The notes beneath the pieces are model-generated. The model was not told the DNA's origin. It ran no database searches and saw only the letters and a program-made list of their open reading frames with translations. A DNA stretch of 63,752 nucleotides, counting the filler, from Reclinomonas americana ATCC 50394 (Eukaryota), in assembly GCA_048213135.1 (NCBI GenBank). It is 13 parts of 7 records of this genome, joined end to end, with 100 filler letters (N's around TTAATTAATTAA, not from the genome) between each part and the next. Parts side by side here need not be neighbours in the genome. Positions count along the whole stretch, not along the records: positions 43,047 to 53,172 come from PS015804.1; 12 more parts are not named here. One strand, written 5' to 3'. The translations under genes and the position numbers were made by a program. Positions 4,169 through 53,272 of the stretch are shown here, in pieces (position 1 is the stretch's first letter; each line of letters starts with the position of its first letter).

Positions 4169-4289
4169 GGAGATGCTGAGAGTGTCGNNNNNNNNNNNNN
4201 NNNNNNNNNNNNNNNNNNNNNNNNNNNNNNNTTAATTAATTAANNNNNNNNNNNNNNNNNNNNNNNNNNNNNNNNNNNNNNNNNNNNAA

Positions 4290-45400: not shown

Positions 45401-46193
45401 NNNNNNNNNNNNNNNNNNNNNNNNNNNNNNNNNNNNNNNNNNNNNNNNNNNNNNNNNNNNNNNNNNNNNNNNNNNNNNNNNNNNNNNNNNNNNNNNNNNN
45501 NNNNNNNNNNNNNNNNNNNNNNNNNNNNNNNNNNNNNNNNNNNNNNNNNNNNNNNNNNNNNNNNNNNNNNNNNNNNNNNNNNNNNNNNNNNNNNNNNNNN
45601 NNNNNNNGCAGTTGACACTGTAGACCGATCATCAGGGCGCCAGCCAACTCATCACGCCCAGCAGTCCCCACTCTTCTCACACACACTCCCAACAGTCAAC
45701 AACAACAATGACAACACCCCGGTCTCTCTCTCTCTCTCACTCTCTCTCCCCCCCCCCTCCTCTCTCTTTCCCACCCTCTCTATCTCCCACGCAACAATCC
45801 ACTTGCGGCCACCCCCGCACTTCCCGCCACCGCCGCCTCCGCACACGCAAAGCAATGCAACCGCCTTCCCGCGCTCGTCGCACCTCCCGCCCCACTCGCA
45901 TGCAACAGAAACCCACTCGCACTCCCTCTTCTCCCTCTGACTCCCACTGCCGCCGATCTCCCCGACAGAACCGGCGTCCACGGAGCCGAGGTCAGCGCAG
46001 AGGTGAGTGCAGAGGAGGCATCGAGTCGCGAGTCCAACAGACAGTGGAGCAAGTGCACCGTGGCGCGTTGTTGTTCTTCTCTCTCTTCCCCGTCCTCGTG
46101 CTTTTCGTGTGGTGGGGATGCTGCGTCGGCGACTCGTTCGGGTGTGGTGTCGTGGTCGGGGGAGCAGAGGGCGTCGAGGTGGGCGCACGACAT
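42477..46193 (-). CDS. USP22: Ubiquitin-specific protease of the USP22/Ubp8 type (ZnF-UBP plus USP catalytic domain)
   Basis: MSCAHL..CFAC..RLFACLSCAFVAC..H..HSLALDL..VFCATCGDHKY (ZnF-UBP). Cys box GLRGLYNMGNTCFMNSILQ. His box YDLQGVVVHKGSMERGHYLAYVR..WILCDD..AYILTY. Middle of the catalytic domain falls in an N-gap. Confidence 0.85.
43060..43640. repeat. Degenerate ~190-bp tandem repeat in a USP intron
   Basis: aacaagctgagg..ggggaaggagaggcgacaaacag and gactgcacagtgag recur three times. Confidence 0.7.
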
Positions 46194-46381
46194 GATGTGA
46201 ATGGCAAATGAAGGACAGCACAGGACGAGTGGTGGCAACTTCTCTGCGTCGACGGCTTGTTGAGACAGGGTGCTCTGGTACTGAGAAAGCACCCACAGCT
46301 CCACCCCAACGTCAACAGAGAAGAGAAAAACCAACAGCCCATTCACTTCAATCGCCATCGACCGTACCTCCTCATAATCAA

Positions 46382-47251
46382 TCACACCAAGCTCCTCAAC
46401 GCCGACACCCACGCCGCCTTATCCTTTGGTGTGTGACACTCGATCCAGTACTCTCGCCCCGTCGTCGAATCCGTAATCACCATCAGCAACGGGCGATCCT
46501 CCACCGGGTCCGGCTGCACCGCGCGCCCGCCCGCCACATTGATCACACCCTTGGGGCGGATCGCGGGCGACTCGGCCTCCTCGCGGCACTTGAAGTACGA
46601 CACACTCTTGGCGTCGCGATCGAGCACAAACCAACGTGTCTTCCAGTTGCGTACAATGTTGCCGCGCTTGGTCATTGCCGTGCTCAGGTACCGAGGCAGA
46701 GAGACAGGCTCTGCTGCTGCTGTTGCAGAGGAGCGTGGAGAGACGACAGCAGAGGCGCGAGGAGACACAGAAGCGGTCTCGATTGGTGGTTGTGGTGGAG
46801 GAGGAGGTGGCGGAGGAATGATCAGATCGGGCAGGCGTTGAAGGTGATTGATGGGTGCGAGGCCGCGTTGGCCTTGCGAGTTCTCGACGAGCCACCAGCC
46901 TGGTTTATCGGTGAGTGAGTGAGTGAGTGAGTGAGTGAGTGAGTGAGGTGTGTGTGTGTGCGCACCTGAAGCTTCATCTGCGATGGAAACGATGCGCAGT
47001 CGCTCGTTCTGCTCGAAAGCGAGTTCGCGTGTGGAGTCGGTGGTTACGGAGCGCGTGTAGAGTGCCACGGCGACGCCTGCGATCGATGCGTGTGAGAGTG
47101 AGTGAGTGAGTGAGTGGAATGGGATGTGATGAGAGGCGAGAGAGTGACTGACCGTGCGGGTCGGCTGGTGCCTGTGTGCGAGAAGTGAGTGAGCGTGTGT
47201 GATAGAGAGAGGGGGGGGGGCGATGAACGCAACTCTCTCGGCGAGTGACAT
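46382..47251 (-). CDS. SH3 + proline-rich linker + PH domain adaptor protein; 4 exons
   Basis: AVALY..RELAFEQNERLRIV..GWWLVENSQGQRGLAPINHLQ (SH3). MTKRGNIVRNWKTRWFVL..PKGVINV..REYWIECHTPKDKAAWVSAL (PH). Confidence 0.9.
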   Translation of the reverse strand: MSLAERVAFIAPPPLSITHAHSLLAHRHQPTRTVSHSLASHHIPFHSLTHSLSHASIAGVAVALYTRSVTTDSTRELAFEQNERLRIVSIADEASGAHTHTPHSLTHSLTHSLTDKPGWWLVENSQGQRGLAPINHLQRLPDLIIPPPPPPPPQPPIETASVSPRASAVVSPRSSATAAAEPVSLPRYLSTAMTKRGNIVRNWKTRWFVLDRDAKSVSYFKCREEAESPAIRPKGVINVAGGRAVQPDPVEDRPLLMVITDSTTGREYWIECHTPKDKAAWVSALRSLV

Positions 47252-47619
47252 GAATGAGTGCGAATGCAATGTCCTCTTGTTCAATATATTGTGTGGTATC
47301 GACGTTCGCACGCCACGAACGACTTTATGTGCCTGCCTCACGCAAGTAGTACTGTGGAGGTCGGGCTTCAGAAACGGCGTCTTTTTGTTGAGACTCGGAA
47401 CACTGATTCGAGTCAAAACGATCGACGTCGAAGCAGTCTCTCGCTGCGTGTGTCGTGCTGCCCCTGGCTCTCAGCAACGCACCTATCTCACGTGCCCCGC
47501 GGCACGAAGAAGTCACACACAATCCCCTCCCCACAATCATAATGGCCATCGCCTTGTACAGATAAACTCCACCTCGCCACAGCCTAGCGTCATCTTCCCA
47601 CGCTCACTGTATCGTCGCA

Positions 47620-50600
47620 TCACGACTCCTCCACGTGCGACTGCGACCGCTTGCATCCTTTGGCGTTGATGTCGGTCGAACCGCAGCACTCCCACGTAAA
47701 TGTCTGCGTGACGGTCGTGAGCAACACACCGCTCCCTCCTCCAGCTCGTATATGCGACAGACCGCCTGCACGCAGAAGTAAGTCTGGCGCGAACGACACA
47801 TGCAGTCGACAATAACACACGCAACTTTTCCGCGTGCCAACTGTCCTCAGCGGCGAAGAGTAAGCACACACGGAACAAACACCAGAAAGCATTAGGAAGC
47901 GGCGACTGACCTCTTGTTCCAACTGCACAGGGAGGGAGATAAAACGGTGAGCAATCACGAAGCACCAAGAGCGATGAACGGAACACGCGACTCACAAACT
48001 GTGCACCAGAAACCGCACCACCGCCAATGAAGAAAGCAGTGAGGAAGGAAGGCGCGCGTAGACAGTAGCACATCGCAAACTGCCAAAAACTCACCGCCTG
48101 TGAACACACTTTGTGAGTGAGAATCGAATACAGACACCAACAGCACGAGTTCCATGCAGACGAACCCGCTGTTCCATGGACAGTCGCACAAGCGATTCGA
48201 TCACAAGGTGAGCTCTGTTTGCACGGACACGGCGCATGGGGGAGATGCAGCGTACAAACCATCTGCCACACCAAATGAGTACAGATGGGTGTTGAAGGAC
48301 GAGAGGGAGTGACACGCACCACAGAAAACTGTTGTCGCCGTGCCACCAGAGGGCAAGAAAGTTAGCAATCGAGACAGAGCTACGAACGCATGTTACAAGG
48401 CCTTCGACGCACCGCCTGTACACACGATTAGAGGTGCGACGTGACGCAGCAAGAGCACACGATAATAAGAGTCACGCAACAGTCTGGAGGTAGATGGTGG
48501 GCAAGTGGAGGAATGGCACACAAAGTAAGCACCAACAGCACAAGCGTTCACAGCTACATGCACGCAACAGTCTGTGTGAACAAGCAGAAGTGAGGGTACA
48601 GTAAGAGAGGAGGAGTTCATGCGCACTTTGCACTTACCCCCTGTTCCGATTCGTCACGCGATGCACAAATAGAAAGCAATTTTGTGAGACAACGATGAGA
48701 CGCAATGAATCGTTACCAACGCACTCCCTGCGGTGAGCGCGAGAAGCACACGTCAGAGGCACATCAGCCGACATGTGCATGTACATGCAAGACGCGCCTT
48801 CTGCGTGAGGCAATAGAATCATCAGAAACACGAGCATGCAAACCATTTCACACCCACGTAAGAAACGCAACAGTATCATCCTCCGTGGACTGCCGCCGTG
48901 AGCGAAAACAACAAGACGGTCAACAATTCGTATGAGCTGTAACGCAAGCCAGCATCAACTCACCCACTGTCGTCCGCGGATTGCACACAGTCACAAAAAA
49001 ACTCGTGAGACACACAGTGCCTTTGCGGGGACACACGCCGACTCCCAAGACTCACCACCTGCACGACTCACGAGCAATGAGATCGAGCAAGCGCAAGCTG
49101 CTGGAAACAGCCAAACAAACTCACCCACTGAGTGCCGACAAGTGCAGATTGTGCATGACAAATGGAGTGAGTTGGTGAGAGAGACACAGATTGCAACCTT
49201 CATCGACAACGCACCGTCTGCGTCCGACAGAAGAAATCGATAAACAGCAGACTGTGAGTGACCAGCAAGTCAATGTATCCACGCTGGAATCACGTTACTC
49301 ACCGCCTGTCAACAAGTATATTCACACGATAAGAAACAAGAAAACTCTGAGTCACGCAAACACACGGAGGCAACGTCGACGGACTTACCGCCTGTATGCA
49401 TTCCGAGATGCGACACACACGTGGGTGAGTGAGATGAAGCAATGAATGTGACAATAAGCACTCTAACGCACCCACTACGCGGGAGTAATCAATAGCACGT
49501 GCGCAATAGAAATGAGCCATGGCATTGCATAATGAGAGAGACGACAACGCACCCCCTGCAATGCAGCGAAGGAAATAAGAGCATGTTGGCAACCCAAACA
49601 CGAACAAGAGACTCACCGCAAACGCCTACATGGGTGGCACGCGAGAGCGATGAGAAGGTGTAAGAGAGAGGACGCAAGCAGGTGCTGATGTGAAGCGGAT
49701 GAATCTCACCGACTGCGGATTCAGGAGGGGAAGAGAGAAGCAAAACATGAGGACTTTCAAGATTGACGCCACGGATACTGAACGACGCCACTTACCGTCT
49801 GCACATGATTCCACAGCGCACGCATCGCAACACATGAGTATGGACACGGTTGTGACAACAGAGCTGCTGAACAAAACTCACCAACTGCGCAACGTAATGA
49901 AACAAATGAGAGACGAATGGGAGAGACAACAGGCAAGCAACAATCAGTAAACGCACCCGCTGATACGACAAGCAGACAGGCGAGCAATAAATATGAGCAA
50001 ATGGAGAAATGCAAATCATACGCAGGTCACTCGCAACACTCACCCCCTGCAGTCGAGACGCAAGGCCAGCGCACGCAGAAGGATGAACATGTGAGTCTGT
50101 ATGCAAAGCTAATCGTACTCCGAGAAACACTCACGTCCTGCAATTCAACTGTGAGCATGATGAAGGACTGCATGTGGGTGCAAGGCATTGATTGACACTC
50201 ACCGACTGCGAGAGGTCAGACAAGCAGGCACAACAACGACAATCGAGCAAAGTGTCAGCGTCGCAAGCGGATGGAACGAACGACATGCCCACTCACCAGC
50301 TGCACGCAGCCAGGCAGTGATTGTCGCACAGTGAACAAAAGTGAGTTCCCCAAAGCAGCCCATGCATGAGAGACATTGACAGACCTCCTGCAGACATCAA
50401 AGTGTATCAGGGTGATGCACACTATAATGGCCAAACAAACAGGCACACTCACCCCGTATTCCTGTTGGTTGGCGCCACGGCAAGGAAAAGAACAATGTGA
50501 GCGTAACTACGAGACGAAAGCCAGTCAGCAAGAAATGTCGCCACACACCCACTGCACAGAGAGAGCAAGGCACCATTTCCACATGAGAAACGATGGCTCA

Positions 50601-52300
50601 AAAGCAATGACACACCCACCCCGTCTTACCTCGGTATGATGCATGCATGGTTGCTTCTCCGCGTACAACTCGCCGCATCTCGCACACGTCGGCGGCGGCG
50701 GCTACACAAATAATACTAAGCACATGATACACAACGTTGGTGTTCCCAGCGATTGATGCCGCAACTGGTGCTGCCGTTGGCGTGGCCGTCACCGGTGCCG
50801 CCGCCGCAGGTGGTACGGCGGTCACTGTGCCTGCCGAGGCCAGTCCACCGACAATGGACGCCGCCACAGCGTGTGACGCCAGCGCGCCCTGTGTGTACAT
50901 GGAGGGAGAGAGATTGACGAGAGGGTAAAGAGGGATTGTGATGGAAATCGACAAACCTCAATGGCACGCTGTCCTCGCGCTACTGGAGCACCGCTGCCGA
51001 CACTCAGAGCGGCAATCTGGGTGGAGAAGTGGTCAGGTCCAAGAGAACTGCAGAAAAGGAAGGTGCCTGACTGCAGCGTACCGCTTTCTCACGAAGTTGT
51101 CGCTCATCTTGCAGCGCCTTCTCAAACTGCGCACGGAGGTGTCAGAAGCATACACACAAGATGTGAAGCAAGACATGTCATTCACCTCGCGCCGGAAACG
51201 ATTCATGCGATCCGACAGCTCCATAAACCGCTCCTCCAGCACCCGCCGCTCGGCCTCGTTCTCGTCGGCTCGTCGCATGGCCTGGAGTGGACATCGACAA
51301 TGAATGGACGCATTACACACAAAAATCGGTGCCGACTGTCACACGCTCGCACCTGATTCAATATCTGTACCATCAACAAGAAAAGAGTCAACAGAAAAAT
51401 CAAGGACGAGGTATGTGCGCCAGCAACGCAACGTAGCGAAACGCCGGCTCCGCGTGCACCACATGGCACTCTTGTTCGTGCGCCGGCTTGTCCGCACCAA
51501 GTCCCTCCCACTCGCAGCCAATGTCCCACGCGCGGCACTTTTGCGGTAACCGCGGACACGTCACATCTGCAGCACATGATGAGCTCAACGAGAGCACACC
51601 CCTGATAAGAATGAAACATACCGACGTGCCGCTGAATCTCGCCGCGTGCAAGCAAGGCCCCACAGCCGCGAGAACAGGGGACATCACGGCATTGCGCCTC
51701 GCGGTGTGCGGTCACGAAGCGGAGGGTGCCGGTGGCGCCACAACCCTGCGGGCACACATACATGCACTCGTCCCAGGCGTGGCGATTGTGAAAGTCGCGA
51801 ATGCACTGGACACAAAGGGGCAGGATGTGAGCGATGACGACACGAGCTGCTATCCCTCAACCAAACGTACCAAGCGTTTCTTGCAGCGCCGGCATTCAAT
51901 CTGCCAAATACACAAACATCAGTCTCGTCGTGCCTCCGCGGAAGAGCACACAACCAACCTCGAGATTCTCGTAGTTGCGCGCATTGAAAGCCGCCGGCAT
52001 CTGCACCGAACTGATCGAGGTCAGACTGCCGTCGCCGCACCAGTTGCGCCCCTCCTCCGTCAAATGCGAACTGCAACGAAACACATGAGCGAGGGCCAGA
52101 AGCCAGCACCGTGAAGCCAGAAAAACGAACCGACAGAGAACGTGCTCTCCCGCGGCACAAAAGCACCACTCACGGGAGCACAAGTCCTGCGTGGTGAGGA
52201 TTAGAAACGCATATCAGACCTGCTTCTGTACGTCCGCCAGCCGCTGTCTGCAGATATCGATCTCCGTGTATCTCTTTCATTCTCTCTCTCTCTCCCTTCT

Positions 52301-52352
<52 letters not shown>

Positions 52353-52650
52353 CCACCCCCACTCACCCTGCACACGCAGCACTCATAACGACGCGCCACT
52401 GGTCGCTCCTCTGCAATCACATCGTCGATCTCCACGAGTGGCGGCTCGAGACGATCGCTCGCTGGTGGAAGTGGTGGTGGAGGTGGTGGTGCCTGCGATT
52501 GCCCCACAGCACCACCAGCAGGTGCTCCTGTGCGAGACAGAGAAGAAGGAGAGAGAGGGTGAGGAGAGAGATCGCGTTCCATCGCAAAACAGGTTGTGCT
52601 CATCACTGCTTTCACTGCTTTCTTCGTGACACTCATCACTGCTGCGCTCA

Positions 52651-52692
<42 letters not shown>

Positions 52693-52814
52693 GCCCTTCG
52701 TCACTGCCTACATCACAGCACTCGCTCTCTCCCATTGCTCTCACTCATCGATCACTCTCACACACCTGGCGTCATCATACTCATCGCCGCCGCCTCATAG
52801 TCCTCAAACCCCAT
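47620..52814 (-). CDS. TRAF-like protein (RING-like finger, TRAF-type zinc fingers, coiled coil) with a C-terminal Cys/His domain built from a micro-exon array; predicted 49 exons, 458 aa if all are included
   Basis: Conventional exons 52766-52814, 52367-52527, 52131-52186, 51959-52070, 51871-51900, 51622-51805, 51433-51566, 51353-51364, 51186-51281, 51082-51126, 50957-51016, 50766-50888 and 50630-50701, then 35 micro-exons, then 47620-47703, all join in one open frame. Motifs: YECCVCRDL..C..GEHVLCRSH, CPQGCG..H..C..VPCSRGCG..IQRHV..C..CRAWDIGCEWEG..HEQEC, and a coiled coil. Start codon is the best candidate, not proven. Confidence 0.82.
47763..50551 (-). other. Array of 35 consecutive phase-0 micro-exons (29 x 3 nt, 3 x 9 nt, 1 x 12, 1 x 15, 1 x 18 nt)
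   Basis: Minus-strand YAG|NNN|GT(G/A)(A/C)GT-type units (plus strand actcac-NNN-ctg, acgcac-NNN-ctg, acttac-NNN-ctg) recur about every 60-100 nt without a break. Confidence 0.9.
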
Positions 52815-53272
52815 GTGCCCTATCTCTGACAAAAACGCAAAGGAAACACTGTTGACAAATGCATTGTGTCCCGTCGTCCACTGATCGCATTCTCATTGTA
52901 AAGAGCCGACTCAGAGCAAATGGACTCCTCAAACCTTGTGCAAGTGCGTCAGTGAGAGAGAGAGAGACTGATAACAACACTGATATCTCATCATGCATCG
53001 CTCTTCTTCTTCCTTCTTCTTCTTCTTCTCCTTCTTCTTTCTCTCCTTCTTCTTCTTCTTCTTCTTTCTCTCCTTCTTCTTTCTCTCGTTCTCCTTCTCC
53101 TTCTTCTTCTTCTTCTTCTTCTTCTTCTTCTTCTTTCTCTCGTTCTTCTTCTTCTTCTTCTTCTTCTTCTTCNNNNNNNNNNNNNNNNNNNNNNNNNNNN
53201 NNNNNNNNNNNNNNNNTTAATTAATTAANNNNNNNNNNNNNNNNNNNNNNNNNNNNNNNNNNNNNNNNNNNN

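Follow-up and report, generated by a model that had tools for sequence, protein, structure and literature searches.

A putative array of 35 micro-exons, most of them single codons, near the 3′ end of a TRAF-type zinc-finger gene of Reclinomonas americana

The micro-exon genes (MEGs) of schistosomes combine short symmetric exons of 6-36 nt with much longer introns and encode secreted parasite proteins. Long animal introns can be removed by recursive splicing, a stepwise process that uses inner sites at zero-length or recursive exons and rebuilds the donor at the junction. Closer to the subject of this paper are the NACHT-ankyrin (nank) genes of the truffle Tuber melanosporum, which are described as holding "dozens of 3 bp mini-exons"; in the C-terminal part of these NLR-type receptors, tens of such exons are described as alternatively spliced, and this has been proposed as a diversifier (Iotti et al. 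2012, Fungal Biol 116:261, as cited in PMC9815663, PMC4986451, PMC3689799 and PMC10197012). In the literature searched for arrays of 3-nt exons, the truffle nank case is the sole precedent that we found. Introners, or introner-like elements, are intron families that multiply within a genome; the sections consulted of PMC9860276 and PMC12130899 describe them as dispersed single insertions and do not mention tandem placement. Here we describe an array of micro-exons on the minus strand of a 63,752-nt stretch of DNA from Reclinomonas americana ATCC 50394 (assembly GCA_048213135.1), referred to below as the window, which consists of 13 parts of 7 genome records joined end to end; the array lies in a part taken from record PS015804.1.

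In our view, held with a probability of roughly 65%, the array is genuine: 36 short spliceosomal introns, kept intact by selection, interrupt a stretch of about 53 codons towards the 3′ end of a TRAF-type zinc-finger gene and leave it as 35 phase-0 micro-exons. The introns would be removed singly, the triplets would be translated as a linker, and the whole would represent an old, diverged mini-exon array. A preliminary examination of the DNA by itself (the sequence-only reading) had proposed the 35 micro-exons, with introns of 57-96 nt, YAG acceptors, GT donors with one GC, and a reading of 53 residues if every exon is included. Tabulation of the sequence by script returned all 35 coordinates (Table 1) and the same introns and splice sites, and the 53-residue reading is present in the joined frame, which is open from 50701 to a TGA at 47620-47622. 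Its statement that no comparable run of one-codon exons is known has to be withdrawn, as the truffle arrays, known to us through the citing papers, precede this one.

Twenty-nine of the exons are 3 nt long, the other six measuring 9, 9, 18, 9, 12 and 15 nt in transcript order; all 35 are multiples of 3, in phase 0 and free of stops. Exons of 6 nt, the expected product of losing one intron between two 3-nt exons, are absent from the array (0/35), though lengths of 9, 12, 15 and 18 nt exist. The median length of the 36 intron-like units is 79 nt. Their donors are GT in 35 cases and GC in one, the hexamers being GTGAGT (13 units), GTGCGT (7), GTTGCG (4), GTAAGT (3) and eight other kinds (9 units together). 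G occupies position -1 of the donor in 29 of the 36 units, G position +5 in 32 and T position +6 in 30; the acceptor is CAG in 34 units and TAG in the remaining 2. A branch-like [CT]TNA[CT] motif occurs at least once in every unit, 9-59 nt upstream of the acceptor, and the interiors are rich in T (35%) and poor in A (15%). The identification of the units as spliceosomal-type introns is thus supported by donor, branch-like and acceptor signals in 36/36. Because G stands at donor position -1 in so many units, the codons of the array are biased towards NNG; of the single-codon exons, only one in 29 begins with GT.

This arrangement is far denser than the surrounding DNA would predict. The strict motif YAG-NNN-GT[AG][ACT]G, counted on both strands of the window, has 30 matches on the minus strand, 22 of these within 47996-50549, and 23 on the whole plus strand; at the rate of the outside region about 0.7 would be expected in 2.9 kb. 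A three-unit pattern has three matches, as against 0.00 in 100 dinucleotide-preserving shuffles. Tandem Repeats Finder (TRF) reports no array within the micro-exon region, and similarity among the unit interiors is at shuffle level (best pair 26, shuffled maximum 26; mean 14.1 versus 12.9). Purifying selection on splicing is needed because all 36 signal sets are intact while the interiors have diverged to noise. Merged units of about 150-190 nt number none among the 36, so that no splice site has been lost. Retention of an intron would lead to a frameshift or a stop in 30 of the 36 cases, and the chance that all six longer exons would be multiples of 3 is about 0.0014.

The three-unit pattern GCAG-NNN-GTGAGT, gap 50-80, CAG-NNN-GTRMGT, gap 50-80, CAG-NNN-GTRMGT matches at least 127 loci in metagenome contigs (L001-L127), and the counts in this and the next three paragraphs refer to the matches listed. 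Runs of at least five units occur in 93 of the 127 loci and runs of at least ten in 58; the longest has 43, the units lying exactly 3 nt apart, and overlapping loci on one contig make up a run of about 3.2 kb. When intron copies were located with a profile for each array, 1259 of 1283 gaps were exactly 3 nt and none was 6 nt. In 81 of the 93 runs of at least five, no triplet accounts for more than half of the units, and 8 of the 93 look like plain repeats. A few loci with a single match are chance matches, their contigs bearing genes of bacterial type. As a control, the same pattern was run over 596 Gb of prokaryote genomes, where it matched 15 loci; five of these have runs of at least five units, all with one invariant triplet, which marks them as plain tandem repeats. 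Bacterial repeats of about 45-87 nt that contain CAG-NNN-GTGAGT with an invariant triplet were seen at L133, L134, L137, L140 and L141, the first three being separate loci in one genome, on contigs of Legionella waltersii.

The triplets of the metagenome arrays are translated, because stops are avoided among them and they are conserved between orthologous arrays. Stops make up 7 of the 1277 distinct interior triplets, whereas 77 are expected from position-wise composition; all seven are TGA, none TAA or TAG, and at least one of them is a parsing artefact. Four pairs of orthologous arrays on different contigs provide 49 triplets for comparison, of which 44 are identical, two differ by synonymous changes of Leu codons (one requiring two base changes) and three differ non-synonymously. 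The introns of these pairs are 81-96% identical in register, as against 68-78% when shifted by one unit. As judged by these comparisons, the metagenome arrays are stably inherited and their peptide is under purifying selection.

An ankyrin-repeat open reading frame (ORF) on the same strand immediately precedes the array at four loci (L029, L030, L012 and L040). L040 also has part of a NACHT-type NTPase (Pfam NPHP3_N), and the named relatives of its protein, with which it shares 54-72% identity, come from Trichophaea hybrida, Wilcoxina mikolae and Sphaerosporella brunnea, all of them Pezizales, the order of Tuber. Inspection of 18 annotated Pezizales NACHT-ANK proteins (P0017-P0059) revealed that 11 stop no more than 2 residues from the end of the last ankyrin exon and that the other seven extend at most about 30 residues past it; this end is the point at which the arrays start in the metagenome contigs. 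Public gene models thus appear to miss the mini-exon tails. Pfam searches on the other ORFs beside metagenome arrays gave one weak match among 60, and 2 kb of flank yielded no identification of a host gene for the other intron families. Units fused into double-length introns, in which one unit has lost its 3′ end and its codon, are seen at L029:1230-1360 and L027:2149-2288; such fusions show how arrays decay.

Younger arrays in the metagenome set bear on the origin of the layout. The introns within one array are members of a family that is met again on many contigs; one family of 67 nt, for example, is present at about 19 loci. For 666 intron pairs with 95-100% identity, the flanked triplets agree at only about 44% of bases; for pairs with 50-70% identity, the figure is about 30%. 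Adjacent triplets are identical in 12.3% of cases, as against 10.4% after shuffling within arrays. Tandem duplication of an intron together with its codon was rejected as the sole origin, since adjacent codons barely exceed the shuffled level and near-identical introns flank differing codons. Possible routes are the insertion of copies of one intron between pre-existing codons, the homogenisation of introns up to their exact borders, and strong diversifying selection on the codons. L055:93-1176, L082, L017 and L039 are examples of young arrays. The window array is best read as an old, diverged member of the class, like the least homogeneous of the metagenome arrays (e.g., L043 and L012). We put forward, as a tentative proposal that may well be wrong, that arrays with one codon per exon are a recurrent eukaryotic layout arising from an undescribed mode of intron gain, in which one intron is copied at successive codon boundaries with a 3-nt period and the codons are left different. 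The layout would serve or allow in-frame, residue-by-residue variation of the tails of signalling or immune-type proteins, through skipping or through DNA recombination between identical introns, and the window array would be its first old, diverged example outside the fungi.

The host gene of the window array was modelled exon by exon (Table 1). On this model the array lies inside the coding region, near the C-terminus and 27 codons before the stop, and separates two Cys/His clusters which, on inspection of their motifs, may form a zinc module. The exon at 51623-51805 has 15 relatives at E<=1e-3 (phmmer, 1.84 billion representatives), and nine of the 11 scanned carry Pfam zf-TRAF (PF02176), one of the nine together with ankyrin repeats. 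The exon itself has no direct Pfam match (E<=10 in one scan, E<=0.01 in another), nor does it match anything in a 5.8-billion protein set from which longer proteins only were considered. The host-gene exons that were scanned have no NACHT or ankyrin match in Pfam. Four exons upstream of the array (45, 60, 123 and 72 nt), separated by introns of 65, 68 and 64 nt, form one open frame that continues into it. The 64-nt intron was modelled because the frame without it meets a TGA inside the 18-nt micro-exon. An alternative intron of 34 nt from 50735 would restore the frame too, but it is far shorter than the other introns of the gene (about 58-130 nt). The GTTGCG donor is shared by four array introns, the 64-nt intron and two further modelled introns, one in this gene and one in the next. 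For the 5′ half of the gene, a search for open-frame paths gave four alternative models. The exons of that half have lengths that are not multiples of 3, and in the gene model all 39 consecutive introns from 51081 to 47704 (three upstream and 36 in the array) are in phase 0.

Table 1. Features of the micro-exon array and of its modelled host gene, in window positions
Feature	Position	Strand	Remarks
Array of 36 short introns and 35 phase-0 micro-exons	47704..50629	-	Sequence reading, script tabulation
Micro-exons 1-9	50549-51, 50453-61, 50385-87, 50297-99, 50203-05, 50135-37, 50044-46, 49957-59, 49882-84	-	Transcript order
Micro-exons 10-18	49796-98, 49710-12, 49617-25, 49553-55, 49472-74, 49389-91, 49303-05, 49215-17, 49125-27	-	Transcript order
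Micro-exons 19-27	49056-58, 48964-66, 48872-89, 48798-800, 48725-27, 48638-40, 48569-71, 48481-83, 48413-15	-	Transcript order
Micro-exons 28-35	48320-28, 48260-62, 48166-68, 48095-97, 47996-98, 47911-22, 47826-40, 47763-65	-	Transcript order
First coding exon (probable), ATG start	52376..52582	-	3′ boundary uncertain
Cys/His-rich, TRAF-type zinc-finger-like exon, 61 residues	51623..51805	-	Relatives carry zf-TRAF
Candidate 12-nt micro-exon	51353-51364	-	Lies between a 68-nt intron with GTTGCG donor and a 71-nt intron; present in one of the four alternative models
45-nt phase-0 exon, coiled-coil-looking region	51082..51126	-	
60-nt phase-0 exon	50957..51016	-	Flanking introns of 65 and 68 nt
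123-nt phase-0 exon, Ala/Pro-rich linker	50766..50888	-	
64-nt phase-0 intron, GTTGCG donor, 5′ of the 72-nt exon	50702..50765	-	Modelled
72-nt exon directly 5′ of the array, 24 residues, C-x2-C-x9-C-x-H-H	50630..50701	-	
Terminal exon, 27 codons and TGA, W-x-C-C ... G-C ... H	47620..47703	-	

In an organism with only short introns, the array would be processed by intron definition, each intron being recognised as a unit and removed on its own. The triplets would then stay in the mRNA and be translated, linking the two Cys/His clusters by about 53 residues; provided that every intron is spliced, they must remain, because the near absence of triplets starting with GT makes recursive removal impossible. 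As the exons are symmetric, an occasional skip would merely shorten the linker in frame, and some in-frame skipping is likely for steric reasons. With regard to origin, the array would be an old and diverged case of the codon-sized mini-exon arrays of truffle NACHT-ANK genes and of the metagenome contigs, in the latter of which copies of one intron occupy successive codon boundaries. We infer the splicing of the window introns, the inclusion of the triplets and the mode of origin shared with other arrays from the DNA.

Several points weigh against this account. A 3-nt exon is too small for factors to occupy both flanking splice sites simultaneously, so the orderly removal of 36 introns is an assumption. 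No shared sequence links the window units to one another or to any of the metagenome families, and for this reason a common origin is argued from layout only. Lengths in multiples of 3 would be automatic, and no sign of coding constraint, if the longer exons are fused 3-nt exons. Avoidance of stops within the window is not significant, with an estimated chance of about 0.1 that no stop would occur overall; the test is weak because NNG codons leave TAG as the sole possible stop. The frame into the 72-nt exon depends on the inferred 64-nt intron of the model, with its unusual GTTGCG donor. Finally, a direct join of 50630 to 47703 would produce a compact Cys/His arrangement resembling a zinc module of the BTK or CHORD type, and the insert may be dispensable.

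The sequence-only reading went further and proposed that the array may be a splicing diversifier. Stochastic or regulated skipping would generate a large family of in-frame isoforms with differences at the level of single residues, and this variation would be the function of the array. We consider this unlikely, although part of the proposal stands: all exons are symmetric and in phase 0, and any subset can therefore be skipped without loss of frame. Exons of 3 nt cannot be defined as exons, neighbouring sites would compete, and with 35 junctions some skipping would be likely even if it were infrequent at each of them. The C-terminal 3-bp exons of truffle nank genes are described as alternatively spliced, so that the same idea is in print for another gene family; the host gene here is likewise of signalling or adaptor type, with its TRAF-type zinc finger, and a stretch that separates two Cys/His clusters may tolerate changes of length. 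Against this, in the orthologous metagenome arrays the triplets are conserved more than the introns, synonymous changes included, which points to a defined peptide; with 44 of 49 triplets identical, a fixed peptide fits no worse than a random diversifier does. The upper bound of 2^35 isoforms that had been given is arithmetic and not a finding.

It is very doubtful that the whole 2.9 kb is removed, through recursive stepping stones or as one large intron, and the two Cys/His exons joined directly. The frame would be the same with or without the insert, and the join would read C-x2-C-x9-C-x-H-H, five residues, W-x-CC ... GC ... H, which is near BTK-type spacing. The terminal exon does match the Pfam BTK motif PF00779 (E=2.2e-4, 21.5 bits, below the curated cut-off of 24), but the match is weak and partial, its residues 4-19 corresponding to profile positions 12-27 of 30 and thus to the second half of the motif only; against PDB sequences the exon has no match at E<=10. 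The His ligand of a BTK motif would need to come from the exon across the array. Removal by recursive splicing would require a rebuilt donor, for which GT-initial triplets are too few, and a one-step intron of 2.9 kb would leave no reason to keep 36 inner sets of signals or exons in multiples of 3. Such an intron would also be out of keeping with the lengths of the other introns of this gene.

A non-coding array, whether as introns that host small RNAs, as a spliced untranslated region or as a decaying pseudogene, is highly improbable. Tandem introns that bear small nucleolar RNAs (snoRNAs) are known from SNHG14, and stop avoidance in the window taken by itself does not speak for translation. 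However, a search of Rfam on both strands found no family at E<=1, folding of 12 of the 36 units found none unusually stable relative to shuffles (z from -1.30 to +1.26), and no sequence is conserved among the units. Intron-borne snoRNAs or mirtron-like hairpins are unlikely, because there is neither an Rfam match nor a stable fold in the 12 tested units. The frame is kept between two coding exons, and decay is at odds with 36 intact sets of splice signals. The plus strand across the array has no ORF of 150 residues or more.

Chance, low complexity, an ordinary minisatellite or an assembly artefact may be dismissed: the pattern does match plain tandem repeats in bacteria, as the five prokaryote runs demonstrate, but those have invariant triplets, whereas here the units are dissimilar and form no TRF array, strict motifs far exceed their expected number, none of the 100 shuffles reaches the three-unit pattern, and positions 45608-53172 are free of N and uninterrupted between two joins, which rules out an assembly gap as the source. 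The window has 12 joins (e.g., 4188-4287 and 53173-53272), each consisting of N44, a 12-base linker with stops in all frames and N44, and gene order across these blocks is untrustworthy.

The next gene downstream, on the same strand at 46382-47470, encodes an SH3 and a PH domain and starts about 150-350 nt past the stop of the terminal exon. PH, BTK motif and SH3 are found together in Tec-type kinases; no in-frame splice joining the two genes was found. Neighbouring genes in the window include IFT57 and one for a CASC1-like protein (Pfam), which marks the organism as flagellated. Truffles are not known to have flagellar genes.

The layout of codon-sized mini-exons and the idea of a diversifier are, as far as the citing papers convey, known for one fungal gene family; what is new here is the host gene, the kind of organism and the diverged state of the introns. 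Gene finders and read aligners are blind to 3-nt exons, so that such arrays are absent from annotations. The gene described here is a second host, unrelated to the first and from a flagellated organism; taken with the metagenome arrays of variable codons, of which there are at least 81, it suggests that the layout reaches far beyond the published family. The array is a natural stress test of intron definition, with splice sites 3 nt apart 36 times running, and the young arrays pose a question of intron gain, in that introns 95-100% identical stand around unrelated codons at exact 3-nt spacing. If skipping were frequent, peptide diversity would be created one residue at a time.

In comparison with recursive splicing, the window array shares the presence of inner splice sites, but a rebuilt donor (AG-GT) is possible at only 1/29 triplets. 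SNHG14 (SNORD115/116) likewise has dozens of consecutive introns in one transcript; it differs in being non-coding, in having a snoRNA per intron and in exons that are not codon-sized, while the window array has no RNA family and, in the 12 of 36 units tested, no stable fold. Schistosome MEGs have runs of short symmetric exons in common with it, as well as skips that keep the frame and a proposal of splicing variation, and are set apart by the window's mostly 3-nt exons and short introns. With introners, as the cited sections describe them, the metagenome arrays share many copies of one intron and the presence of a family on many contigs; the difference is the exact 3-nt spacing of the metagenome copies (1259 of 1283 gaps), and the window units lack family likeness, their interiors being at shuffle level.

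The closest likeness is to the Tuber nank genes as the citing papers present them. Both have, towards the C-terminus of a protein of signalling or receptor type, tens of consecutive 3-nt exons set among short introns, here 29 exons of 3 nt and six of 9-18 nt among 36 introns of 57-96 nt; in both every skip is in frame, and the diversifier proposal is common to the two. The window gene differs in that its scanned exons match neither NACHT nor ankyrin, its relatives having TRAF-type zinc fingers instead, in that its organism carries the flagellar gene IFT57, and in the NNG bias of its codons. The ankyrin-linked metagenome arrays consist of one intron family, in contrast to the mutually unlike introns of the window, and they tie the layout back to the truffles, standing directly behind the ankyrin repeats of NACHT-type genes of truffle relatives.

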